From the IMG/VR virus record IMGVR_UViG_3300013121_000039, positions 32,001 through 96,000 of that record: a stretch of DNA of 64,000 bases, one strand, 5' to 3'. The stretch comes from a virus (Duplodnaviria; Caudoviricetes). Each line of letters opens with the position of its first letter. The first letter of the stretch is position 1. The notes under the pieces are model-generated. The model did no database searches. It was not told the origin of the DNA and worked only from the letters and a program-made list of their open reading frames with translations. Shown here piece after piece: positions 6,238 to 60,687 of this stretch. A program made the position numbers and the translations under genes.

Positions 6238-8031
6238 ATCTTCCGGCGCAGCGTACCCGGTCTTCTGGGTCGGGTTCATCACGTCGTAGCGCGGGTGCCT
6301 GATCATGGAGGCCAGGAAGCAGAGCAGGATGGAGTGGTAGGAGTCGTCCGTGGCATCAGGCGCATGCTTGTACTGCACCTGCCTCTGGACCTCGTTGTAC
6401 TCCGAGAAGATGGAGAGCATGTCCTTCGCGAAAGGGTCCTCGAACTGGGGCCAGTTCGGGAAGCGGAGCACGTCCCGGCGCTTGATGGCGTTGAAGATGT
6501 CGCTCATCACCTCGGTGCGGTGAACGAGGAAGCGCTGGAGCCCCTCCTCCCACTTCACCTTCTGGCCAGGCTGGCTGTACTGGTACTTCACGAGGCGCTG
6601 CTTGCCGAAGATGCGGGCCAGGGCGTCGTTGCGGTCGAAGCCGCCGCCGTAGTCACAGCCCACCAGCTTGACGTCCCAGTACCGGATGAGCTTCTCGATG
6701 AGGTCCAGCTGGATGGGGGGCTCGATCTCCTGCCCCTCGAACCGGTGGATGTAGAAGATGGTGAAGAAGCCGTGCATGTAGGCGCCGAGGGAGAGGACGG
6801 TGTAGCTGCCCTCGCCGGTGCCCCAGTCGATGCCGGCGTAGACGGGGGAGCTGCCGCCCAGGAACCCCTTCAGCTTCACCAGGCTCTCGGAGTCCATCGA
6901 CAGGCTGTCGAGGCAGTTGTCCATCACGTCCTGGCGCGTGAGGGGTCGGGTGCCGGAGTCGTACGAGAGGCCGAGCACCTCGTTGTAGAACTGGCTCCGC
7001 GGGTACTTGATGTACTTGTCGAAGATCTCGCCCCAGTTCAGCCAGGGCACCATGAGCTGCGGGATCCGGTAGCCCTCGTACCAGTCCTTCAGCTTGTCCT
7101 TCACCCCGGGATTCATGGTGACCCACTGGGCCATGGGGTGCCGAGGGTCGATCCGCTCGCCGCACTTGTCGCAGACGAGGCCCTCCTTCGAGATGTGGGC
7201 CTCCCCCAGGATGTTCCAGTGCCAGCTGCTGGGGTTGTTCGGAGTGCCGTGCCGATCGCAGGGGACCGCCCACTCGTTCTGGGTCGAGTAGTTGGTCCAG
7301 TAGTGCTCGATGGCGTTGTCGTAGCTCTTCGGCGTGCCGGAGTAGATGAAGAGCTTGTAGTGGGAGTGTGAGGCGCACTCCTCGATGACGGGGATGTTGT
7401 CGGTGATGATGTCCTGGATCTCGTCGAGGAGGACGAGGTCCGCAGGGATGCCGCGAGTACGATCGGCGTTGTGGTAGGCGTACCGCAGCGTGATCTGGCT
7501 GCGGTTGATGAACTTCTTGAGGAAGACGTTGTCCGAGAGCTTCGAGGTCGTCCAGGCCTTCAGGATCTCCGACGTCTCGATGGGCTCCTTGAGCCGGTCG
7601 GCGGAGAAGGTCTTCGTCTGCTGGTTGGTCGGGGAGACGTAGAGGACGTTGAAGGCGTTGATGATGCAGCAGTAGGCCAGCGTCTTGTTGCCGAGGAGCG
7701 TCGACTTCTCCACCTGCCGGCCACACTTGTAGAGGGTGCGGCGGGAGGGGGTATCGTAGGGGAGGCGGAGGTACTCACGCTTCTTGAAGCTGAAGTTGAT
7801 GTGCTTCTGAAGCTCCTTGTCCGGGAGCTTCACGGCGAACTCGACGAACTGGGAGGGGGAGACGTTGATGAGCTCGGCCTGCTTGCGGGCCAGCTCGTCG
7901 TCGCTCATGAACTCGTCGGTGATCTCCGGCTCGTAGTCCCACTCCTCCCGCAGCTCGGGCTGCCCGCTCTCAGAAACGATGATGTTGGAGGTCTCCCGCC
8001 TCCATCGGCCGTAGTCGAGCACACTCTGCAT
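6232..8031 (-). CDS. terL: Terminase large subunit (lambda GpA-like)
   Basis: Walker A-like KCGRQVEKST, Walker B LVLLDE, coupling motif SGTP, Zn-ribbon insert, nuclease AGIDWG and terminal DDSYH. Confidence 0.9.
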   Translation of the reverse strand: MQSVLDYGRWRRETSNIIVSESGQPELREEWDYEPEITDEFMSDDELARKQAELINVSPSQFVEFAVKLPDKELQKHINFSFKKREYLRLPYDTPSRRTLYKCGRQVEKSTLLGNKTLAYCCIINAFNVLYVSPTNQQTKTFSADRLKEPIETSEILKAWTTSKLSDNVFLKKFINRSQITLRYAYHNADRTRGIPADLVLLDEIQDIITDNIPVIEECASHSHYKLFIYSGTPKSYDNAIEHYWTNYSTQNEWAVPCDRHGTPNNPSSWHWNILGEAHISKEGLVCDKCGERIDPRHPMAQWVTMNPGVKDKLKDWYEGYRIPQLMVPWLNWGEIFDKYIKYPRSQFYNEVLGLSYDSGTRPLTRQDVMDNCLDSLSMDSESLVKLKGFLGGSSPVYAGIDWGTGEGSYTVLSLGAYMHGFFTIFYIHRFEGQEIEPPIQLDLIEKLIRYWDVKLVGCDYGGGFDRNDALARIFGKQRLVKYQYSQPGQKVKWEEGLQRFLVHRTEVMSDIFNAIKRRDVLRFPNWPQFEDPFAKDMLSIFSEYNEVQRQVQYKHAPDATDDSYHSILLCFLASMIRHPRYDVMNPTQKTGYAAPEDG

Positions 8032-52417: not shown

Positions 52418-52741
52418 ATGGTCCTTGAGGGCGACGAGCCCCTCTACGAGCTGAACGAGTCAGAGCTGCTGTGGATGGCTCGTCTTCAGGGGCTCCCGCT
52501 TCTTAGGCGAGGAATTCCGCGCGAGGAGCTCGTGGAACTCGTGTCGGGCAGCAGGGCCGTGGAGGAGAGACACCAAGCAAGCACCAACTACACGAGGGGA
52601 CGGCTCGAAGACTTCGTGCAGGCCAACATCGACCGGCTCCGTGGGCAGCTCCCAGGCTGCAACGGGCTGTGTCGAACCTTCCAGTGCACCGAAGGCAAGC
52701 ACATGTCGTGCTTCATGCCGAACGAGGCACTGCTGCTATGA
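52418..52741 (+). CDS. Cys-rich hypothetical protein
   Basis: AAGGAGG RBS. Confidence 0.65.
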   Translation: MVLEGDEPLYELNESELLWMARLQGLPLLRRGIPREELVELVSGSRAVEERHQASTNYTRGRLEDFVQANIDRLRGQLPGCNGLCRTFQCTEGKHMSCFMPNEALLL

Positions 52742-54006
52742 GCACCTACCAAGAGTGTTTCACCTGTGCGAAGGTGGGGTACTGCTCAAAGACCGACGTG
52801 CAGAAGATCTTGAGGGGGTTTGTCTGCCCACTCTTCGCTCCGGTGACGGAGCCGATCATCATGGCGCGCTGTTCGATGATCGATCAGTACGGCCCCATCC
52901 CAGCAGCCCGCGCCATGCTGCACAGGCCGCCAGACGCGAACCAGGAGGAGCATGTCCAGATGACCTACGACGCCCCGCCAGCCCAGGGGACGACGTACGC
53001 TGACCGCCGCAAGCAGCTCGAAATCATGTCCTTCACCGAGGTGCGCCTTCTCGGCAACAAGCGGTACAAGACTGCCGACGGCCAGCCCGTGTTGGACTGG
53101 GACGAGTCTCTCCAGATCGACAGGAAGTCCCAGTCCATCGAGAAGATCCTCCAGTTCGAGCTCGTGAACGGCATCATCGTCCCCGACAACCAGCAGTCCA
53201 CCCAACCGCAAGGAGCAGACCAGATGGCCCAGCAGCCCGTGCCCCCGCAGTTCCCGCCCAACGGCGCCCCCCAGATGCCGCAGGCCTTCCAGCCGCCGGC
53301 GCCCGGCGCCCAGCCGCAGCAGATGCCGATGCCGCCCAACGCCCCGCCCATGCCCCCGCAGATGGCGCCGCCGATGCAGCAGATGGCGCCCCCGCCGATG
53401 GGCCCGCCCGCCTTCCAGCCGCCCCCCGGCTTCGCCCCGCAGGCCGGCCCCGGCCCCATGGGCACCCCGCAGCTCCCGCAGACGGAGGCTCCGGCGCCCC
53501 AGGCGGGGGGCAAGAAGAAGCGGAACTCCGGCGCCGCCGCGGCGCCACCGCCGGCGCCCGCGCCCGGGCCGGGCACGCCCCCGCAGCAGCCCAACGCCCC
53601 CATGATGGCCCCGCCGGCCGGGCCCCCGGCCTTCCAGCCGGGCGGCTTCGCGCCGCCGCAGCAGGGCTTCCAGCAGCCCCAGCAGCCCGGGTTCGCGCCG
53701 CCCCAGCAGCAGGGCTTCGCGCCGCCCCAGGCCGCGCCGCAGCCGGCGCCCCAGGCCGCCGTGGACCTCACCCCGGTCCTCCAGCTCATCGACCAGGTGG
53801 GCAAGGCCGTCAACGCCCTCGGGGCCGCCGAGGGTGAGACCCTGGCGCGCCTGGAGCGGAACCTCCAGGTGCTCACCATCGGCGTCATGCACATCTACGG
53901 GTCGCAGACCCAGCTGATGCAGTGGCTCTCCGGCCAGAACAAGGCCGACGCCGTGCAGGACCCGACGAAGTTCGTCGAGTTCCTCTCCCAGTACCTCCCT
54001 CGGTAA
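52738..54006 (+). CDS. Protein with a long P/Q/A/G low-complexity region
   Basis: ATGA coupling; N-terminal Cys cluster; GFAPPQQ repeats; a separate start at MAQQP (53224, AAGGAG RBS) is possible. Confidence 0.65.
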   Translation: MSTYQECFTCAKVGYCSKTDVQKILRGFVCPLFAPVTEPIIMARCSMIDQYGPIPAARAMLHRPPDANQEEHVQMTYDAPPAQGTTYADRRKQLEIMSFTEVRLLGNKRYKTADGQPVLDWDESLQIDRKSQSIEKILQFELVNGIIVPDNQQSTQPQGADQMAQQPVPPQFPPNGAPQMPQAFQPPAPGAQPQQMPMPPNAPPMPPQMAPPMQQMAPPPMGPPAFQPPPGFAPQAGPGPMGTPQLPQTEAPAPQAGGKKKRNSGAAAAPPPAPAPGPGTPPQQPNAPMMAPPAGPPAFQPGGFAPPQQGFQQPQQPGFAPPQQQGFAPPQAAPQPAPQAAVDLTPVLQLIDQVGKAVNALGAAEGETLARLERNLQVLTIGVMHIYGSQTQLMQWLSGQNKADAVQDPTKFVEFLSQYLPR

Positions 54007-54083
54007 GGACGCCGGCAGCCGCGCCGGAGGGAGTGCCTCCTCCCTCCGGCCGGCGTCCCAATACCATCCCGCCCACGACCCTC

Positions 54084-54239
54084 ATGTCGCTGACCAGCGA
54101 CCAGACGAACGTGATGAGTGACGAGCAGCTCATCGCGTTCCTCGACTTCTACCAGGGCGTGCGGCTGCCTCAGGGCACTCCACGCTCAGTGCTGCTCTCC
54201 AAGCTGCACTCGGTCGCCATCGTCGCGAGGGACTTCTGA
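54084..54239 (+). CDS. Small helical protein
   Basis: MSLTSDQTNVMSDEQLIAFL...SVLLSKL; no clear RBS. Confidence 0.45.
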   Translation: MSLTSDQTNVMSDEQLIAFLDFYQGVRLPQGTPRSVLLSKLHSVAIVARDF

Positions 54240-54365
54240 GACGGTGAGAGAACGCGGTTACGAAATCAGGCGTCTCAGTCGCCTGTAGGGACTGCGCCAG
54301 GGGCGAGGTCAACCGCGCGAGATACCTACTCCGCGGCTCCAGCGTGAAGCCACTACCGAGCAGTG
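54237..54365 (+). ncRNA. Candidate structured RNA of unknown class
   Basis: Stems cgcggtt/aaccgcg, caggcg/cgcctg, gtagg/cctac (pseudoknot) and ccact/agtgg; no convincing CDS. Confidence 0.35.
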
Positions 54366-54406
54366 GAAGCAGGCCTGCGGCGAGTCCCCGGGCCTGCTTC
54401 TTTTTT
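54366..54406 (+). terminator. Intrinsic terminator insulating the tRNA promoter
   Basis: gaagcaggcc / ggcctgcttc followed by TTTTTT. Confidence 0.85.
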
Positions 54407-54412
54407 ACCCAC

Positions 54413-54441
54413 TTGACTCTGCGGAACGTGCTGACTAAGGT
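54413..54441 (+). promoter_or_regulatory. Sigma70-type promoter of the tRNA operon
   Basis: TTGACT-N17-TAAGGT. Confidence 0.75.
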
Positions 54442-54450
54442 GCTCCTCGC

Positions 54451-54606
54451 ATGACGCTCTTGTCGCAAACACGGTGGTCGGACTCAGTGGCCGAAAGGGC
54501 CCTGCTGTCCCACGTGTATGCGGCGATGGAGTGCGCCACCCTCGTGGCCTCCAAGCGCGACCCCCAGGCCCAGATCCCGTTCAACGGTAGCAGGCCCGGC
54601 CCATAG
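54451..54606 (+). CDS. Putative attenuator leader peptide (51 aa, all 20 amino acids)
   Basis: MTLLSQTRWSDSVAERALLSHVYAAMECATLVASKRDPQAQIPFNGSRPGP; ATG 9 nt after the -10 box; no RBS. Confidence 0.65.
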   Translation: MTLLSQTRWSDSVAERALLSHVYAAMECATLVASKRDPQAQIPFNGSRPGP

Positions 54607-54645
54607 AAGAACCACTCCAGAGTGGACCCCTTCTAGAGGCCGGGC
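54594..54645 (+). promoter_or_regulatory. Antiterminator hairpin
   Basis: gcccggcc/ggccgggc, tagaag/cttcta and ccact/agtgg nested stems. Confidence 0.7.
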
Positions 54646-54674
54646 GAGCAAAGGCTCCCCGGCCTCTTCGTTTT
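54635..54674 (+). terminator. Attenuator terminator
   Basis: agaggccggg-c-gagc / gctc-cccggcctct followed by TCGTTTT. Confidence 0.75.
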
Positions 54675-54708
54675 CCTGAGGAGGCACGGATGAAACGACA
54701 ACCGACAT

Positions 54709-54780
54709 AGGTCCCCATGCCCAAGGCTGGCGAGCTGGTCTCCAAAACCGGCTGGGAGGGTTCGATTCCCTCGGGACCTG
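54709..54780 (+). tRNA. tRNA-Trp(CCA)
   Basis: Cloverleaf; ctggt-CT-CCA-AA-accgg; atypical D-arm. Confidence 0.8.
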
Positions 54781-54786
54781 CTGTAC

Positions 54787-54860
54787 GCCCTGGTAGCTCA
54801 GCTGGTAGCAGCGCCGCACTCGTAATGCGGAGGTCGCCGGTTCGACTCCGGCTCAGGGCT
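54787..54860 (+). tRNA. tRNA-Thr(CGT)
   Basis: Cloverleaf; ccgca-CT-CGT-AA-tgcgg. Confidence 0.9.
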
Positions 54861-54871
54861 CACAAGAAGAT

Positions 54872-54947
54872 GCGGCTCTAGCTCAGCTGGTAGAGCGCTG
54901 CCTTGCCAAGGCAGAGGTCGCGGGTTCGATTCCCGTGAGCCGCTCCA
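54872..54947 (+). tRNA. tRNA-Gly(GCC)
   Basis: Cloverleaf with encoded CCA. Confidence 0.95.
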
Positions 54948-54951
54948 GTAC

Positions 54952-55033
54952 GGGGACGTTGACGGTAAGGGTACCGACGCCGGCTGTAAACCGGCTCTCC
55001 TTGAGCAACCTGGTTCGAGTCCAGGCGGCCCCA
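54952..55033 (+). tRNA. tRNA-Tyr(GTA)
   Basis: gccgg-CT-GTA-AA-ccggc; variable arm; one acceptor mismatch. Confidence 0.8.
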
Positions 55034-55047
55034 TTCGCAGCACCGCA

Positions 55048-55065
55048 GTTCTTTGACAACTGAAT
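55048..55065 (+). promoter_or_regulatory. rrn-type boxA antitermination element
   Basis: GTTCTTTGACAACTGAAT, AT-rich in a GC-rich context; resembles boxA GYTCTTTAACAA. Confidence 0.65.
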
Positions 55066-55086
55066 CGCAGTGACAGTGAAGATGCA

Positions 55087-55157
55087 GGGACGGGTGCGTC
55101 CCACGATGCTCTGCGCCTGAACTCGTGTCAGGAGCAACATCAGCGCGCACCCGTCCC
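55087..55157 (+). ncRNA. Long bulged hairpin RNA of unknown class
   Basis: 12-bp gggacgggtgcg / cgcacccgtccc stem; apical cctga/tcagg. Confidence 0.5.
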
Positions 55158-55168
55158 AGCAGTACTTC

Positions 55169-55239
55169 GCGTCTCTAGCTCTGGGGAGAGCAGTGGCCTT
55201 TTAAGCCGAAAGAAGTGGGTTCGACTCCCACGGGACGCA
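55169..55239 (+). tRNA. tRNA-Lys(TTT)
   Basis: tggc-CT-TTT-AA-gccg; short D-loop. Confidence 0.8.
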
Positions 55240-55244
55240 CACAC

Positions 55245-55320
55245 GCCTGCGTAACTCAACTGGTAGAGTACTCGGCTCTTAACCGAGAAGTTGTGGGTTC
55301 GACTCCCTCCGCAGGTACCA
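55245..55320 (+). tRNA. tRNA-Lys(CTT)
   Basis: Cloverleaf with CCA. Confidence 0.92.
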
Positions 55321-55323
55321 TCT

Positions 55324-55401
55324 TCCTCGTTGGTGCAGTCAGCTGTTGAGCACGTCGCGCTTGAAGCGCGGAGGCCCTGGCCTTGCGATCAGGACGAGGA
55401 G
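55324..55401 (+). ncRNA. Aberrant tRNA-like element, anticodon position TGA
   Basis: tcctcgt/acgagga acceptor, gtgc/gcac D stem, tcgcg/cgcgg anticodon stem; no TTCG T-loop; short variable region. Confidence 0.6.
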
Positions 55402-55407
55402 CATCAT

Positions 55408-55483
55408 GCGGCACTAGCTCAGTTGGTAGAGCGTCGGCTTCCCAAGCCGAAGGTCGCGGGTTCGAATCCCGCGTGCCGCTCCA
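55408..55483 (+). tRNA. tRNA-Gly(CCC)
   Basis: Cloverleaf with CCA. Confidence 0.95.
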
Positions 55484-55487
55484 GCAT

Positions 55488-55562
55488 GCGGGTGTAGCTC
55501 AGTGGTAGAGCTCTGGCCTTCCAAGCCGGGAGTCGACGGTTCGAATCCGTTCACCCGCTCCA
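55488..55562 (+). tRNA. tRNA-Gly(TCC)
   Basis: Cloverleaf with CCA. Confidence 0.93.
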
Positions 55563-55565
55563 TCT

Positions 55566-55805
55566 TCTCCGTACCCGGGTAGCTTAATGGCAGAGCTCCA
55601 GCCTATGAAGCTGGCGATGCGGCTTCGAGACCCGCCCTGGGGGAGATCGTCGTGAGGGGTACTGAACCCCAATCGGCTACGGAGAGTACCGGGTCGCGAG
55701 GCCCGGGCAGGCCCTCCTCGATGAGTGGGGAGGTGGAAGATGCAGGGCCATCGGGGCCCGAGCCTCTGCCATGTCGGTGAGATCCCGGCCGCCTGACACA
55801 AGTTC
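55566..55805 (+). ncRNA. ~240-nt structured RNA containing a tRNA-like domain (anticodon ATG)
   Basis: tRNA-like 55574-55641 nested in a tctccgta/tacggaga stem, followed by several hairpins and a T-arm-like gtcgg-TGAGATC-ccggc. Confidence 0.55.
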
Positions 55806-55807
55806 GC

Positions 55808-55881
55808 AGAGGAGTCGTCCAACGGCAGGACGCTGGTCTTTGGAGCCAGCTATCTCGGTTCGAATCCGAGCTCCTCTTCCA
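55808..55881 (+). tRNA. tRNA-Gln(TTG)
   Basis: Cloverleaf with CCA; A1-U72, U73. Confidence 0.9.
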
Positions 55882-55887
55882 CTTCGC

Positions 55888-55962
55888 AGGGGTGTAGTTC
55901 AACGGCAGAACGTCTGGCTCTGGACCAGAAAGTTGAAGGTTCGAATCCTTCCACCCCTTCCA
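55888..55962 (+). tRNA. tRNA-Gln(CTG)
   Basis: Cloverleaf with CCA; A1-U72, U73. Confidence 0.9.
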
Positions 55963-55966
55963 CCTT

Positions 55967-56042
55967 GCCGGCGTAGCTCAGTTGGCAGAGCAGCCGCCTT
56001 GTAAGCGGCAGGTCGCGAGTCCGACTCTCGCCGCCGGCTCCA
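55967..56042 (+). tRNA. tRNA-Thr(TGT)
   Basis: Cloverleaf with CCA; T-loop TCCGACT. Confidence 0.9.
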
Positions 56043-56051
56043 TCTTCACAT

Positions 56052-56124
56052 TCCGGGGTAGCTCAACTGGCAGAGCGGGCGGCTGTTAACCGTCAGGTTG
56101 GGGGTTCGAATCCCTCCTCCGGAG
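56052..56124 (+). tRNA. tRNA-Asn(GTT)
   Basis: Cloverleaf. Confidence 0.92.
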
Positions 56125-56130
56125 CTTCAT

Positions 56131-56205
56131 GAGTCGCAAGTCATCGAGGGATGGCCGCGGTCTGCAACACCGCAGAGCGGAGTTCGACTCTCCGGCGACT
56201 CTCCA
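56131..56205 (+). tRNA. tRNA-Cys(GCA)
   Basis: gcggt-CT-GCA-AC-accgc; U73 and CCA. Confidence 0.85.
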
Positions 56206-56209
56206 GTAC

Positions 56210-56284
56210 GGCCCTGTCTTCTAGCGGTAGGAAGCCGGACTCTCAATCCGGTAACGGCGGGTTCGATTCCCCCCAGGGTCACCA
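56210..56284 (+). tRNA. tRNA-Glu(CTC)
   Basis: Cloverleaf with CCA. Confidence 0.88.
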
Positions 56285-56289
56285 CTCAC

Positions 56290-56362
56290 GTCGCGTTCGT
56301 CCAGGGGCCAAGGACGCTGGCCTTTCAAGCCGGAAACGCGGGTTCGAATCCCGCACGCGATA
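56290..56362 (+). tRNA. tRNA-Glu(TTC)
   Basis: Cloverleaf. Confidence 0.9.
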
Positions 56363-56365
56363 CTT

Positions 56366-56439
56366 CGGGGTGTAGCGCAGCCTGGTAGCGCGCCTGCCTT
56401 GGGCGCAGGAGGTCGCGGGTCCGAATCCCGCCACCCCGA
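56366..56439 (+). tRNA. tRNA-Pro(TGG)
   Basis: Cloverleaf; T-loop TCCGAAT. Confidence 0.9.
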
Positions 56440-56502
56440 CTCGTATTTTAGGTTCAGGCCCGAAGCTAAAATAAGGGGCCGACCTGTGATGGCTTACTTC
56501 AA

Positions 56503-56576
56503 CAGCGTGTAGCTCAGCTTGGTAGAGCACCAGCTTGGGGTGCTGGGGGCCGGAGGTTCAAATCCTCTCACGCTGA
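56503..56576 (+). tRNA. tRNA-Pro(GGG)
   Basis: Cloverleaf. Confidence 0.92.
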
Positions 56577-56582
56577 CTTCTT

Positions 56583-56656
56583 CGGGGTGTAGCTCAGACT
56601 GGTAGAGCGCACGGTTCGGGACCGTGAGGTCGCTGGTTCGATTCCAGTCACCCCGA
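56583..56656 (+). tRNA. tRNA-Pro(CGG)
   Basis: Cloverleaf. Confidence 0.93.
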
Positions 56657-56664
56657 CTCTTCAT

Positions 56665-56742
56665 CCGCTCGTAGCTCACGTGGCCCAGAGCACCCGCCTG
56701 ATAAGCGGGAGGTAGGTGGTTCAAGTCCACCCGAGCGGACCA
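56665..56742 (+). tRNA. tRNA-Ile(GAT)
   Basis: Cloverleaf with CCA. Confidence 0.92.
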
Positions 56743-56749
56743 TCTTCAT

Positions 56750-56824
56750 GGTGATGTTCGTCCAACGGCAGGACATGGGATTGTGGATCCCAGAATGAGA
56801 GTTCGACCCTCTCACATCACCCCA
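56750..56824 (+). tRNA. tRNA-His(GTG)
   Basis: G-1:C73 pair and CCA. Confidence 0.9.
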
Positions 56825-56829
56825 TTCAC

Positions 56830-56920
56830 GGGGGACCTCTCCGCAGCGGAGGGTACATGCCCACCGGCTCTTGCGCGCCGACACGGCTAAGGTCCTGGGG
56901 TTGAAGTCCCCGGTCCCCCT
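56830..56920 (+). ncRNA. tRNA-like element without a canonical anticodon arm
   Basis: gggggac/gtccccc acceptor, ctcc/ggag D-like stem, T-arm tgggg-TTGAAGT-ccccg. Confidence 0.55.
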
Positions 56921-56930
56921 CCTTCGTCCT

Positions 56931-57005
56931 GGGGTCATCGTTCATCGGTCAGGACACCGGCCTGTCACGCCGGAGAGGCGAGTTCGATTCTCGCTGGCCC
57001 CGCCA
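56931..57005 (+). tRNA. tRNA-Asp(GTC)
   Basis: Cloverleaf with CCA. Confidence 0.92.
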
Positions 57006-57009
57006 TCTT

Positions 57010-57085
57010 GGAGCGATAGCTCAGCAGGTAGAGCACTGGTCTGAAGAGCCGGGTGTCGCAGGTTCGATTCCTGCTCGCTCCACCA
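57010..57085 (+). tRNA. tRNA-Phe(GAA)
   Basis: Cloverleaf with CCA. Confidence 0.92.
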
Positions 57086-57087
57086 CC

Positions 57088-57180
57088 CTTCGCAGCAACC
57101 TCATGAATCGCGATGCGGGACCCTACCCCGCCTCTCACGACGACGAGGGCCTCGGTACTTGCGGCCGCGGTGCTGCGAAG
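57088..57180 (+). ncRNA. Structured spacer RNA
   Basis: 10-bp closing stem cttcgcagca / tgctgcgaag with internal hairpins. Confidence 0.45.
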
Positions 57181-57187
57181 ACTTCTT

Positions 57188-57260
57188 GGGGCCGTAGCTC
57201 AGTTGGGAGAGCGCCTGCTTCGCACGCAGGAGGTCAAGGGTTCGACTCCCTTCGGTTCCA
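57188..57260 (+). tRNA. tRNA-Ala(CGC)
   Basis: Cloverleaf; G3:U70. Confidence 0.93.
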
Positions 57261-57263
57261 CAT

Positions 57264-57339
57264 GCGCGCGTAGTTCAGTGGCCAGAACGCTGCCTTGACA
57301 TGGCAGAGATCGCCGGTTCGAGTCCGGCCGCGCGTACCA
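57264..57339 (+). tRNA. tRNA-Val(GAC)
   Basis: Cloverleaf with CCA. Confidence 0.93.
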
Positions 57340-57345
57340 CTTCCC

Positions 57346-57421
57346 GGGGCTATAGCTCAGACGGGAGAGCGCCTGGATGGCATCCAGGAGGTCGTCGGTT
57401 CGATCCCGACTGGCTCCACCA
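57346..57421 (+). tRNA. tRNA-Ala(GGC)
   Basis: Cloverleaf with CCA; G3:U70. Confidence 0.93.
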
Positions 57422-57427
57422 CTTCAC

Positions 57428-57503
57428 GGGTCCATAGCTCCAACGGGAGAGCAGCGGCTTTGCAAGCCGACGGTTGCCGGTTCGAGTCCGGCTGGATCCA
57501 CCA
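57428..57503 (+). tRNA. tRNA-Ala(TGC)
   Basis: Cloverleaf with CCA; G3:U70. Confidence 0.9.
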
Positions 57504-57517
57504 CATCAGGAGTACGC

Positions 57518-57733
57518 ATGCCGCGGCCGCCAGAGGCTCAAGCCCTCTTCGAAAGGAGCGGGATGTTCTCGACTCACGAGAAGTTGGTCTCCTTCCTCTA
57601 CGAGCTGATGAGGGACCACCTTCCCCCAGGAGTCGTCGAGAGGCTCGTCCAGAACAACCAGGAGACTCCGGCGTCGCTGACGAACGGCTACCTGGCGCAG
57701 TACGCCAAGGACCTCGCCGACCGACTCAAGTAG
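57518..57733 (+). CDS. Small protein inside the tRNA array
   Basis: AGGAG RBS; KLVSFLYELMRDHLPPGVVE; an alternative start at 57563 also has an RBS. Confidence 0.7.
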   Translation: MPRPPEAQALFERSGMFSTHEKLVSFLYELMRDHLPPGVVERLVQNNQETPASLTNGYLAQYAKDLADRLK

Positions 57734-57734
57734 T

Positions 57735-57808
57735 GCCGATGTAGCTCAGAGGCAGAGCACTGCCTTGGTAAGGCAGCGGTCTGGGTTCGACCCCCAGCAT
57801 CGGCTCCA
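57735..57808 (+). tRNA. tRNA-Thr(GGT)
   Basis: Cloverleaf with CCA. Confidence 0.9.
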
Positions 57809-57812
57809 TCAT

Positions 57813-57890
57813 CCGCCCGTAGCTCAGCTGGATCAGAGCGCTTGACTACGAATCAAGAGGCCGGGGGTTCGAATCCCTCCGGGCGGACCA
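57813..57890 (+). tRNA. tRNA-Arg(ACG)
   Basis: Cloverleaf with CCA. Confidence 0.93.
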
Positions 57891-57893
57891 CAT

Positions 57894-57971
57894 GCGTCTG
57901 TAGCTCAGATGGAAGAGAGCGCTGGCCTCCGAAGCCAGAGGGCGGGGGTTCGAGTCCCTCCAGACGCGCCA
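57894..57971 (+). tRNA. tRNA-Arg(CCG)
   Basis: Cloverleaf with CCA. Confidence 0.92.
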
Positions 57972-57974
57972 CAT

Positions 57975-58049
57975 GCTCCTGTAGCTCAGGTGGACGAGAG
58001 CGGCTGTTTCCTAAACAGCAGGCCGGGTGTTCGAGTCACCCCAGGAGCA
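57975..58049 (+). tRNA. tRNA-Arg(CCT)
   Basis: Cloverleaf. Confidence 0.9.
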
Positions 58050-58055
58050 CTTCAC

Positions 58056-58137
58056 TGCGGGATCGTCTAGTGGCCATGACACCGGGCTCATAACCCGGGG
58101 GCGAAAGCCATCGTGGGTTCGAGTCCCACTCCCGCAA
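58056..58137 (+). tRNA. tRNA-Met(CAT), initiator-like with a long variable arm
   Basis: ccGGG-CT-CAT-AA-CCCgg; variable stem ggc-GAAA-gcc; U1-A72. Confidence 0.85.
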
Positions 58138-58140
58138 CAT

Positions 58141-58216
58141 GCACGCCGAGGTAGCTGGAGACACCGCCTCTCTCACACGGAGGACTTGCTGGGTTCGATC
58201 CCCAGGGCGTGCACCA
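58141..58216 (+). tRNA. tRNA-Val(CAC)
   Basis: cctct-CT-CAC-AC-ggagg; CCA; atypical D-arm. Confidence 0.8.
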
Positions 58217-58223
58217 TCTTCAT

Positions 58224-58308
58224 GTCCAGGTGGCGGAACTGGTAGACGCACCAGCTTGAGGGGCTGGCGGGTAACACCGTGCGGGTTCGATTCCCGCCCT
58301 GGACACCA
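58224..58308 (+). tRNA. tRNA-Leu(GAG)
   Basis: Type II cloverleaf with CCA. Confidence 0.93.
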
Positions 58309-58313
58309 TCTTC

Positions 58314-58397
58314 GGTCGAGTGGCGGAATGGTAGACGCACCTGGCTCAGAACCAGGCGGGTAACACCGTGAGAGTTCGACTCTCTCCTCGACCACCA
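58314..58397 (+). tRNA. tRNA-Leu(CAG)
   Basis: Type II cloverleaf with CCA. Confidence 0.93.
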
Positions 58398-58401
58398 TCA
58401 T

Positions 58402-58482
58402 GCCCGAGTGGCGGAACGGTAGACGCGGCGGACTCAAAACCCGCTGCCGAGAGGCGTGCCGGTTCGAGTCCGGCTTCGGGCA
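58402..58482 (+). tRNA. tRNA-Leu(CAA)
   Basis: Type II cloverleaf. Confidence 0.92.
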
Positions 58483-58521
58483 CTTCACGCAGTACCACTA
58501 CAACAAGAAAGGAGCGTAGCG

Positions 58522-59066
58522 ATGGACACGTTGGTGTTGTCCCACGCCTACGAGCCCGTCGCACGCGTCCACTGGCAACGGGCCGTAACCCTCCTCTGGG
58601 AGGGCAAGGTCGAGGTCATCGAGGAGTACGAGAGCAGGACGGTCAGGTCGGTCACGCTGGAGTTCAAGATCCCCAGCATCATCCGCTTCCTCAACGTCAT
58701 CCGCCGGCGCAAGCCGTCGATGAAGTTCTCGCGAGAGAACGTCTTCGCTCGGGACAAGGGCCGCTGCCAGTACTGCGGCAACAAGGTCACGAGAGCAGAG
58801 TCGACCTACGACCACGTCACCCCGCGGTCGAAGGGGGGCGGGACGAACTGGGAGAACGTCGTCATCGCCTGCACCCCGTGCAACCAGCGGAAGAGCGACA
58901 AGACCCCGGCCCAGGCCGGCATGAAGCTGCTCTCGGTGCCGGTGAAGCCGGCGCACCTGCCTGGCACCACCAGGCTGACGTTCCTGCTCGACAAGAACGT
59001 GCCGCAGTCCTGGAAGCAGCTCATGATGGACTACGGCTACTGGCACGGCGAGCTGGAGCACGACTA

Positions 59067-59067
<1 letters not shown>
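58522..59067 (+). CDS. HNH endonuclease (McrA-like)
   Basis: AAGGAG RBS; RD-x3-CQYCG, TYDHVTPRSKGG, WENVVIACTPCNQRK. Confidence 0.93.
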
Positions 59068-59158
<91 letters not shown>

Positions 59159-59224
59159 GCGTGTGTGGCCCCGAGCACCTTGGGTGTCTGGCACTCAGCC
59201 AGAGCGCACCATCGGGGCATCCTT

Positions 59225-59314
59225 GGAAGAGTGGGTGAGTGGCTCAAACCACCGGCCTCGAAAACCGGACGTGGGGCAACCTGCGCGAGAGTTCGAATCT
59301 CTCCTCTTCCGCCA
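59225..59314 (+). tRNA. tRNA-Ser(CGA)
   Basis: Type II cloverleaf with CCA. Confidence 0.93.
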
Positions 59315-59319
59315 TCTTT

Positions 59320-59409
59320 GGAAGCGTGGCCGAGTGGCTCAAGGCACCAGCTTGGAAAGCTGGAGGTGGCTCCGGCTGCCCGCAGGTTCGAATCCTGCCG
59401 CTTCCGCCA
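59320..59409 (+). tRNA. tRNA-Ser(GGA)
   Basis: Type II cloverleaf with CCA. Confidence 0.93.
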
Positions 59410-59412
59410 TCT

Positions 59413-59503
59413 GGAGAGGTGGGCGAGTGGCTCATGCCGCCGGTTTGCTAAACCGGTCTGCGATCACATCAAAGCGAGGGTTCGAATCCCTCCCTCTCCG
59501 CCA
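59413..59503 (+). tRNA. tRNA-Ser(GCT)
   Basis: Type II cloverleaf with CCA. Confidence 0.93.
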
Positions 59504-59506
59504 CAT

Positions 59507-59583
59507 GCCCCCGTAGCTCAGAGGACAAGAGCAGCCGCCTTCTAAGCGGACGGTCGCTGGTTCGAGTCCAGCCGGGGGCACCA
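59507..59583 (+). tRNA. tRNA-Arg(TCT)
   Basis: Cloverleaf with CCA. Confidence 0.93.
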
Positions 59584-59607
59584 CTGTCACTACGACTCAG
59601 GAGTCCT

Positions 59608-59865
59608 ATGAAGAAGGTCGCGAAGATCACCGGCCGGGCGCTCTGCTACGACGTGCTGGAGTGCCCCATCTGCGAAGCCCGCACCGTCGTCAACGAGAAC
59701 ATGCCCTGGTGCGCCACGTGCGGCACCGAGTACTACCACGGCCGAGACGACCGGAAGACCGGCGCCAGACGCTGGGTCTTCGACACGAAGCGGAAGACGC
59801 CACAGTACGCCTGGGGCAAGGCCCTGAACCTGTCCGGCGGGATACGGATCGGGCCGAAGAAGTAG
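59608..59865 (+). CDS. Zinc-ribbon protein
   Basis: AGGAG RBS; CPIC and CATC. Confidence 0.75.
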   Translation: MKKVAKITGRALCYDVLECPICEARTVVNENMPWCATCGTEYYHGRDDRKTGARRWVFDTKRKTPQYAWGKALNLSGGIRIGPKK

Positions 59866-59902
59866 AGGGGCGGGCCGCTGCGCCCGCCCCTCTTTCTTAG
59901 CT
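59864..59902 (+). terminator. Hairpin + TTAGC terminator ending the plus-strand block
   Basis: agaggggcgggc / gcccgcccctct followed by TTCTTAGCT. Confidence 0.75.
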
Positions 59903-59936
59903 CACTTCACCATTGGAGTGGCCTTCCTTTCCCCAG

Positions 59937-60257
59937 TTACCCGCCGAAGAGCTTCTCGTCGCGGCACTGGATGCAGAACGTGTCTGCGTCTGGGTACTGC
60001 CCCTTCAACATGAAGACCCGGTGACCGCAGGGCAGCTCACGAGTCCGGAAGTGCCGGTTCGTGTAGTGCGTCCGCATGTGCGAAGCGCGAGGGTGCTTGT
60101 CTCCCACGTCGATCGACACCTTCGGCCCAACCAGCCCCGGCTTGGGAGCGTGGTAGGACGACTTGGAGACGTCGGTGTAGTAGACCTTGCGCTTGTGGTG
60201 ATGGTCAGTCGGGCCCCCGGACGAGCGCCTGCTGCGCCCGAAAACAAGGGTAGCCAT
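59937..60257 (-). CDS. Basic hypothetical protein with C-terminal Zn motif
   Basis: AGGAGG RBS; LPCGH...CIQC. Confidence 0.65.
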   Translation of the reverse strand: MATLVFGRSRRSSGGPTDHHHKRKVYYTDVSKSSYHAPKPGLVGPKVSIDVGDKHPRASHMRTHYTNRHFRTRELPCGHRVFMLKGQYPDADTFCIQCRDEKLFGG

Positions 60258-60361
60258 ACAGCCTCCTAGAGCTGGTCGAGATCAGGTCTGACCGCTGGCG
60301 CGCCTCACGGGCGCTGGGCGGGTTCTCGGGACCGGTCTAGGAGTGGGACATGACGGCGCGG

Positions 60362-60390
60362 AAGGTAGACGCGACGCCACGTAGAGTCAA
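60362..60390 (-). promoter_or_regulatory. Sigma70-type promoter
   Basis: TTGACT-N17-TACCTT. Confidence 0.55.
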
Positions 60391-60409
60391 GCGGTCATTT
60401 CCAAGCAGA

Positions 60410-60438
60410 AGGGGGCCCAGCTTGTACTAGGCCCCCTC
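60410..60438 (-). terminator. Terminator-like hairpin
   Basis: agggggcc / ggccccct downstream of the 60448 gene. Confidence 0.5.
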
Positions 60439-60447
60439 GCGATCAAC

Positions 60448-60687
60448 TCAGCTTGCTTGCTTCAGGCGAATGAACTCATGCCAGCCGCACTTGTGGGGGC
60501 AGACGACGCTCGGGCTCACCTGGCCGTCGGCCGTGATGGTGTGGTTGACGAGGGACAGCAGATGGTCGCATTTCGGGCACACCAAGGCCACCGTCTGCTT
60601 GAAGACCGGACCTGGGAAGACACTGGCGATCCATGGTCGCCAGCGTCCCTTGGTCCAAGCCCCGCCGTCTGGCAGGAGCTCCTGCAC
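60448..60687 (-). CDS. Small Zn-binding protein
   Basis: CPKC...VSPSVVC-x3-CGWH. Confidence 0.65.
   Translation of the reverse strand: MQELLPDGGAWTKGRWRPWIASVFPGPVFKQTVALVCPKCDHLLSLVNHTITADGQVSPSVVCPHKCGWHEFIRLKQAS

Follow-up and report, generated by a model that had tools for sequence, protein, structure and literature searches.

Introduction

In the classical leader-peptide attenuators (trpL, hisL, leuL, thrL, pheL and the multivalent leader of ilvGMEDA) a short open reading frame (ORF) lies close to the promoter, a terminator precedes the regulated biosynthetic genes, and an antiterminator makes use of the 5' arm of that terminator. The position of the ribosome determines which of the two folds is adopted, a ribosome at the stop codon leading to termination, and the end product feeds back through charged tRNA. 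Here we examine a leader of the same design that stands in front of a tRNA array in a tailed phage (Caudoviricetes). It lies within a 64,000-nt stretch of DNA, the window, which corresponds to bases 32001-96000 of the 138,310-bp IMG/VR virus record IMGVR_UViG_3300013121_000039; the phage itself is referred to as G000. We consider it on balance probable that the leader is a ribosome-dependent transcription attenuator gating the whole tRNA operon, with an ORF that has been selected to sample nearly all amino acids and tRNA species.

The leader has the defining structural features of leader-peptide attenuation except clustered regulatory codons, and it is in this exception that its novelty lies. 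Unlike the classical leaders, the phage ORF and its homologues have no runs of regulatory codons; every one of the 20 amino acids occurs in them, and 33-34 tRNA species are called on once or twice each. What is regulated is a set of tRNA genes and not biosynthetic enzymes, the start appears to be leaderless, the stop codon is part of the antiterminator strand, and the whole element is borne by a phage. Attenuation of a gene of the translation apparatus, read out by charged tRNA supply, is found in the pheM leader of the Escherichia coli pheST (phenylalanyl-tRNA synthetase) operon, but pheM responds to Phe only and controls a synthetase rather than tRNA genes. T-boxes likewise sense tRNA charging through a choice between terminator and antiterminator. 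They differ in binding one uncharged tRNA directly, without translation, and an Rfam scan of positions 53800-60500 of the window with E values up to 1 found no match, T-box included, in the leader (54413-54707).

A further resemblance is to the leaderless small upstream ORFs of mycobacteria (5-50 amino acids), among them Cys-rich candidate attenuators, in which the peptide is not conserved and the arrangement is kept (PMC4633059). These too start at the transcript 5' end, come first in their operon and have been proposed to act in cis. The mycobacterial candidates differ in being enriched for one amino acid and in preceding protein genes, and the parts of that report drawn on here describe no terminator/antiterminator pair of the present kind (PMC4633059).

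The reason why phages carry large sets of tRNA genes, and the way in which these are controlled, is an old open question. Among current ideas are that the tRNAs compensate for codon usage, that they take the place of a host pool that has been degraded, and that they allow escape from defences which cleave tRNA (for example PMC10264068, PMC11555353). A preliminary description of the window had stated that no description of such a system was known, and in agreement with this no report of tRNA genes controlled by a leader peptide came to light in a full-text literature search. If the proposed control is real, the phage gauges its decoding capacity directly and produces tRNAs when they are needed, and attenuation extends from one amino acid to the whole pool and from enzyme genes to tRNA genes. 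The element, at about 260 nt, is self-contained and could serve as a compact sensor of translational stress.

Results

Homologous leaders

The G000 record is about 72% complete and has about 65% GC. The leader region is covered by DNA contigs from four sequencing runs belonging to four studies (activated sludge in two cases, an anaerobic digester and a soil in one each) with zero differences between them, so that it is not an assembly artefact and the sequence is real and widespread. One RNA run was also identified, with a small share of the sequence words only.

A search with PolA gave four related viral contigs, three of which have tRNA regions in the gene order of the G000 array (Trp, Thr-CGT, Gly-GCC, Tyr, Lys, Lys, Gly, and so on); because the order matches in these three PolA-related contigs, the tRNA arrays are homologous. 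Synteny with the G000 array was seen in G002, L017, G003 and G004. The preliminary description had expected related arrays to carry the same arrangement, and this was borne out in two further lineages. G002 is a complete genome of 209 kb whose PolA is 70% identical to that of G000; its leader (L006:5947-6211) consists of TTGACA, 17 nt, TATCTT, 7 nt, ATG and a 49-codon ORF, followed by pairing regions designed as in G000. The third lineage, L016/L017, was found in two samples by a pattern scan of metagenomes and has TTGACG, 17 nt, TATCTT, 9 nt, ATG, a 48-codon ORF and the same switch. In L017 the next gene after the leader resembles tRNA-Trp and escaped ARAGORN (L017 1240-1314); syntenic tRNAs come after it. 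The genes upstream of the leader are unrelated among G000, G002 and L017, and the leader thus travels with the array.

Of the seven loci returned by the metagenome scan, only L016 and L017 were genuine, the other five being chance matches in coding DNA; pattern scans of viral and genome sequences for further leaders gave chance matches and G002, and nothing more. No close cultured relative of G000 was found, its PolA being at most 33% identical among the cultured-phage matches listed, and near and distant DNA searches of cultured phages gave tRNA-sized matches only. Microbacterium phage Big4 was considered as a comparator and dropped, as its tRNA region is not syntenic.

Promoter and alternative folds of the leader

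The elements named in the preliminary description at the 5' end of the leader are all present. A strong intrinsic terminator (54365-54406), with a 13-pair stem of -26.7 kcal/mol followed by T6, is predicted to close the preceding genes and to insulate the leader promoter. It is succeeded by a promoter of the Sigma-70/SigA type (54413-54441) made up of TTGACT (54413-54418), 17 nt and TAAGGT (54436-54441). Nine nucleotides further on is the ATG of a 51-codon ORF (54451-54606), which ends in Pro-Gly-Pro and TAG (54604-54606); the corresponding spacing is 7 nt in G002 and 9 nt in L017. No Shine-Dalgarno sequence precedes the ATG at 54451, and the ORF would be near-leaderless. TTGACN-N17-TANNNT was found at the corresponding place in all five related arrays. 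A strict version of the pattern (TTGACN-N16-18-TANNNT) matches the 138-kb genome only twice, at the leader and once on the minus strand, with no match inside the array, and in the tRNA regions of the relatives it occurs at the leader only. A consensus promoter and terminator scanner missed this promoter, whose -10 box has three of six consensus matches, as well as both terminators of the G000 leader region, whose loops or stems exceed its limits.

The switch lies around the end of the ORF. Region 2, the antiterminator 5' strand (54594-54609), comprises the last ORF codons and the stop codon, and is identical in the three homologues apart from one base just before the stop. Region 3, the antiterminator 3' strand (54630-54645), is shared in part (54635-54645) with the 5' arm of an intrinsic terminator (54635-54674). 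This attenuator terminator has a stem of 10 + 4 pairs (54635-54667) and an imperfect U tract (TCGTTTT), reaches -28.8 to -31.8 kcal/mol in G000 and ends 36 nt short of tRNA-Trp. In all three leaders it is a GC-rich stem of 14-15 pairs (about -28 to -30 kcal/mol) with a U-rich tract. The claim that the end of the ORF pairs with a strand overlapping the terminator proved correct, since 54594-54601 and 54604-54609 form with 54630-54645 a hairpin of -36.8 kcal/mol (z = -6.0) that excludes the terminator; in the three homologues its energy is between -36.4 and -36.8 kcal/mol. The antiterminator is capped by an apical hairpin (54612-54625) which is kept in all three with different sequences and in a shifted register.

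The differences between the homologues respect these pairings. In the terminator of G002 a G/C insertion in the outer stem is compensated, in that of L017 two changes in the inner stem compensate each other, and the terminator loops differ among the homologues. The RNAalifold consensus of the three leaders contains the region 2:3 antiterminator, a pairing between region 1 and region 4 (the terminator 3' arm) and a hairpin over codons 7-23. The last of these is the core (54469-54517) of a long hairpin inside the ORF (54460-54526, codons 4-26) that is predicted in all three homologues; the core is conserved, with four pairs changed on both sides, and the hairpin as a whole is a candidate for a pause or synchronising hairpin. 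Region 1 (CCAGGCC, 54564-54570) pairs with the start of region 2 or with region 4 in the minimum free energy (MFE) and RNAalifold folds. Its partner is not constant over the homologues, a weak pairing with region 2 being seen in G000 and G002 and another partner in L017, and its role is uncertain. The whole leader folds far better than shuffled sequences (z = -3.3 and -5.5).

Folds of the growing transcript gave the same result in all three leaders. The region 2:3 pairing is the MFE structure from about 40 nt past the stop codon until the terminator 3' arm is complete, and the optimum flips to the terminator only once the whole of that arm is out, the order by which antiterminators act through forming first. 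When a ribosome footprint was placed on codons 45-52, masking the ORF end as the preliminary description had suggested, the terminator formed with a probability of 0.96-0.99, and likewise in G002 and L017; stalls in the last codons would thus still mask the antiterminator, as had been noted there. A footprint that removes region 2 in this manner leads to the terminator, so that fast, uninterrupted translation should terminate and a delayed ribosome should allow read-through.

Composition of the leader ORF

The 51-codon ORF includes all 20 amino acids and 35 distinct codons, as first reported, and lacks TTA, CTA, GTA and ATA. Its codons engage 34 of the 41 anticodon species of the array. The earlier figure of 34 engaged tRNAs is therefore retained and the array count of 40 is not, as ARAGORN finds an additional His-like tRNA with anticodon ATG, which is unengaged together with Lys-TTT, Gly-CCC, Gly-TCC, Val-GAC, Ala-TGC and Arg-TCT. 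An amino acid that recurs in the ORF tends to take another isoacceptor each time, and in this way all four Ser, three Leu, three Pro and three Thr tRNAs, both Gln and both Glu tRNAs are engaged.

As background we used coding sequences (CDS) from 113 G000 genes, crudely called by GC content at third codon positions (GC3). Windows of 51 codons drawn from these have 25.3 +/- 3.2 distinct codons and 16.5 +/- 1.7 amino acids, and the probability of at least 35 codons is 0.001, that of 20 amino acids 0.013 and that of both together 1.5e-4. The predicted excess of codon diversity over CDS windows was thus found, but CDS windows are the wrong null, because the ORF could simply be free of codon bias, and against mononucleotide shuffles kept open 35 distinct codons are ordinary (P = 0.17), a result unfavourable to our proposal. 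The raw codon count, being equalled by shuffles, was consequently discarded as evidence, and the number of tRNA species engaged took its place. The amino-acid count stood up to both backgrounds, all 20 being unusual against the same shuffles as well (P = 0.0045). Likewise rejected as evidence was the openness of the frame, which also tells against the proposal, other frames being open too in GC-rich DNA. The absence of the four codons without an array tRNA, which the preliminary description had noted with the caveat that GC bias would also produce it, is uninformative, since 92% of CDS windows and 11-47% of shuffles would show it as well.

The engagement of 34 tRNA species exceeds every background that was applied: CDS windows (23.3 +/- 2.5), mononucleotide shuffles (26.7 +/- 2.1), shuffles in which every codon position retains its own base composition (27.8 +/- 1.9; P = 0.001, or 0.001-0.002 over the shuffles) and the same peptide with synonymous codons redrawn from phage CDS usage (28.9 +/- 1.6; P = 0.002). 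It is also confined to one frame. The other five frames of the G000 leader have 13-17 amino acids and 21-28 tRNA species, and over the three leaders the other 15 frames have 13-19 and 21-28, the ATG frame alone being exceptional.

Both homologous ORFs also contain 20 of 20 amino acids, with 35 (G002) and 36 (L017) distinct codons, and engage 34 tRNA species of the G002 array and, with the G000 array as proxy, 33 in L017. The three peptides have 33-49% of aligned residues in common, and the rare residues His, Asp, Asn, Ile, Lys and Phe are differently placed in them. Inheritance was allowed for by fixing the residues shared with G000 (for L017 also those shared with G002) and redrawing the remainder from the proteome; the probability of all 20 amino acids was then 0.069 for G002 and 0.066 for L017, or about 0.005 jointly. 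With shared codons fixed, tRNA engagement remained unusual in G002 (P = 0.0056 with the position-specific shuffle and <0.0002 with CDS usage) and in L017 (P = 0.0002-0.0008). The real signal in these sequences is the amino-acid set, the tRNA species engaged and the restriction of both to one frame.

Translation of the leader ORF

In the ATG frame GC3 is 0.86 in G000, 0.73 in G002 and 0.87 in L017, against about 0.55 at positions 1 and 2, with shuffle P values of 0.0008, 0.07 and 0.0003, respectively. Gene callers predict the 51-amino-acid ORF as a protein (P0001). The pairwise ratios of nonsynonymous to synonymous substitution rates (dN/dS) of the three ORFs are 1.0, 1.7 and 0.9, and identity is equal across codon positions; over this range of 0.9-1.7 there is no sign of purifying selection on the peptide. 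The preliminary description had anticipated a poorly conserved peptide within a conserved start, stop and covarying switch, and this is what these ratios and the compensatory changes in terminator and antiterminator amount to. Residues that are conserved at the N- and C-termini coincide with RNA stems. A word-indexed search of 5.8 billion proteins, with the single sequence and with a four-sequence profile, recovered the ORF product itself only, no PHROG family was found for the 51-amino-acid product, and a back-translated scan of viral contigs gave no match. We infer that the leader ORF is translated and that its product has no sequence-dependent protein function; high GC3 combined with free replacement of amino acids would fit selection on composition and not on order.

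Discussion

Proposed mechanism

It is proposed that host RNA polymerase starts at the consensus promoter, producing a transcript that would begin at the ATG or 1-3 nt before it and be translated as a leaderless mRNA. A lead ribosome keeping pace with the polymerase would reach the Pro-Gly-Pro-stop end of the ORF and cover region 2, leaving region 3 and region 4 to form the terminator, and transcription would stop 36 nt before tRNA-Trp. If the ribosome were delayed by a scarce charged tRNA within roughly the first 43 codons, region 2 would pair with region 3 as soon as the latter emerges, the terminator would come too late and the polymerase would read into the 41-tRNA array. The resulting tRNAs would speed up translation of the leader, giving a self-limiting loop. 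A C-terminal proline slows peptide release. All three peptides end in Pro-Gly-Pro-stop, and slow release there would help to keep the ribosome on region 2.

A wider interpretation, which we put forward tentatively and with less than even confidence, is that the leader watches over the entire tRNA pool and tunes itself, such that shortage or cleavage of any of about 30 species induces the replacement set, followed by shut-off. Starvation, host shut-off or a tRNA-targeting defence could, with the same reservation, be the triggers. In this scheme the point of transcription start, the translation of the ORF, the efficiency of termination and the direction of regulation are deduced from the arrangement of the elements, as would be any role against tRNA-targeting defences; a link to anticodon-nuclease defence in particular is pure inference.

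Several results weigh against the attenuator as proposed. At equilibrium the full leader without a ribosome prefers the terminator (P = 0.93-0.98), and the stalls that favour the antiterminator are confined to about codons 35-42 in G000 and codons 32 and 40-41 in G002, with hardly any such position in L017. The earlier claim that a stall at almost any codon would induce the array thus holds if the structure formed first persists, as in kinetic folding, but not at equilibrium. The direct-path estimate of the barrier for refolding from antiterminator to terminator is 6.7-10.6 kcal/mol, so that refolding is not evidently slow in comparison with termination. Because the codons come once or twice each and not in runs, sensitivity to mild shortage would be low, and part of the ORF would be blind, as the Gly codons of each of the three homologues and the sole Phe and Asn codons of G000 fall within its last eight codons. 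Mycobacterial leaderless initiation has been reported to require that the mRNA begin at the start codon (PMC4633059), and with an ATG 7-9 nt past the -10 box there may be 1-3 additional nucleotides at the 5' end of two of the three mRNAs. Lastly, the homologous terminator-type leaders number three (G000, G002 and L016/L017), and the covariation counts are small as a result.

Alternative explanations

One alternative is narrower, namely that the leader is a real ribosome-dependent attenuator whose readout does not extend to the whole set of codons. Its signal would be only whether translation is coupled to transcription at all, or slow decoding at about codons 35-42, as a classical four-region attenuator in which amino-acid and codon diversity has no sensing role. 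The footprint scan is consistent with this, with stalls effective at codons 35-42 in G000 and at 32, 40-41 and more weakly 31-33 in G002, as are the possible region 1:2 pairing in G000 and G002, the single codons without runs and the position of Gly, Phe and Asn codons in the blind tail. We nevertheless regard it as unlikely. It leaves unexplained the 20 amino acids and 33-34 tRNA species found in one frame of three diverged leaders; in the alignment codons 35-42 have no enrichment in common, region 2 has another partner in L017, and as the transcript grows the region 1:2 pairing gives way to the antiterminator in each of the three leaders. A second possibility is that the leader is an untranslated structured RNA, concerned with processing or stability or acting as an rrn-like antitermination leader, or that it is a terminated small RNA, and that the reading frame is fortuitous. 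The missing Shine-Dalgarno sequence, dN/dS near 1 with identity spread evenly over codon positions, the location of most conserved nucleotide blocks in predicted stems, folding far better than shuffles, the openness of other frames and a boxA-like element downstream (described below) would all be expected of such an RNA. They have to be set against a strong GC3 periodicity limited to the ATG frame in G000 and L017, an ATG kept at the expected transcript start in three lineages, the occurrence of a GGAG Shine-Dalgarno sequence before the ORF at the corresponding position in more distant relatives, amino-acid and tRNA-species counts that are exceptional in the ATG frame only and the lack of any Rfam match in the leader, so that this explanation also seems improbable.

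It is very unlikely, finally, that the ORF is a small phage gene of the ordinary kind, flanked by a promoter and a terminator of its own; in that case the array would be transcribed by leak-through or from unrecognised phage promoters, and the codon diversity would reflect weak codon-usage selection on a short gene. Such a gene would be predicted by gene callers, have a GC3 typical of coding sequence and show conserved residues at its termini, all of which is true of this ORF. Its conserved termini fall on RNA stems, however, and its dN/dS is near 1, it has no homologue among the proteins searched by word index or in PHROGs, and it travels with the tRNA array and not with the upstream genes. 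Its stop codon is placed inside a conserved structure that excludes the terminator, and its tRNA engagement exceeds that of the same peptide with synonymous codons redrawn.

Leaders of more distant relatives

The question of how far the proposed attenuator extends among related phages can be addressed with G003 and G004, whose PolA proteins are 55-57% identical and whose GC content is about 50%. A scan anchored on tRNA-Trp for leaders of their type returned these two only (L008 4633-4875 and L010 3244-3011, the latter on the minus strand). Both have TTGACG, 17 nt, TANNNT, the GGAG Shine-Dalgarno sequence and an ORF of 40 or 33 codons, which ends in or just before a conserved long hairpin followed by tRNA-Trp. 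Two of their properties do not favour the proposal: they have no terminator with a U tract, and their ORFs hold 18 and 16 amino acids, a diversity that is not unusual. The G004 leader is without Cys and Asp, for which there is no tRNA in its 29-tRNA region, and also without Glu and Arg, although tRNAs for these are present. Since G003 and G004 lack both the terminator and the diversity, the terminator switch and the full amino-acid set are confined to the GC-rich branch, and the distant type may represent an ancestral or an alternative form of leader control.

Other features of the tRNA region

Immediately downstream of the terminator is region 5 (54676-54685), which contains GAGGAGG and is complementary to the terminator 3' arm. 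The resulting 4:5 hairpin (window 54658-54685; L006 6190-6212; L017 1198-1224) has an energy of -18 kcal/mol in G000, and the pairing, which involves the terminator 3' arm and the U-rich tail, is kept in all three leaders with compensatory changes in L017. A six-codon mini-ORF (54690-54710) that follows GAGGAGG and runs into tRNA-Trp is probably a remnant; in G002 an HNH gene (L006 6248-6634) is found at the corresponding place, between the attenuator terminator and tRNA-Trp.

The array itself extends over 54710-59583 on the plus strand, with 41 genes called by ARAGORN, beginning with tRNA-Trp at 54710, and one HNH endonuclease gene inside it (58456-59067). The G000 array is compact at 4.9 kb, and that of G002 is spread over about 20 kb by many HNH insertions. 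After the fourth tRNA of G000 there is a boxA-like element (55050-55075), a block of 26 nt (TCTYTGACAACYGAATCGCAGTGACA) that is nearly invariant in three diverged arrays, where it follows the third or fourth tRNA (L017 ~1585-1610; L006 ~6960-6985), and that includes TCTYTGACAAC. Its resemblance to rrn-type boxA may point to Nus-type processive antitermination of a long untranslated tRNA transcript. In one Streptomyces draft genome the related motif TCTTTGAGAAC occurs five times and TCTCTGAGAAC once, against one control match, and no link of these to rrn operons could be made in that assembly.

Some minor observations concern individual tRNA genes. The His-like tRNA with anticodon ATG has the same array position in G000 (55572-55644) and G002 (L006 8472-8542), and a CAT codon is present in the G002 leader and absent from the G000 leader. 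In G002 there is also a sequence resembling tRNA-Tyr (GTA), with a variable arm that is long (L006 6816-6960); it is not called by ARAGORN. Anticodons that read stop codons were seen in G002 (CTA, L006 3648-3723) and in G003 (TCA, L008 10587-10658), and a transfer-messenger RNA gene lies inside the tRNA region of G004 (L009 6437-6808).

Elsewhere in the window, the other strict promoter match is on the minus strand (60390-60340) and is directed away from where the array ends; a four-codon ORF (ATG TCC CAC TCC TAG) comes next, and then a gene of 107 amino acids. Two genes upstream of the leader is a protein of 445 amino acids (52669-54006) with a very long Pro/Gln/Ala-rich low-complexity middle, which as a search anchor gave no PHROG family and no relatives in viral contigs. 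The replication genes of the window encode PolA, a DnaB-like helicase, a RecA-like protein and a ThyX-like protein.

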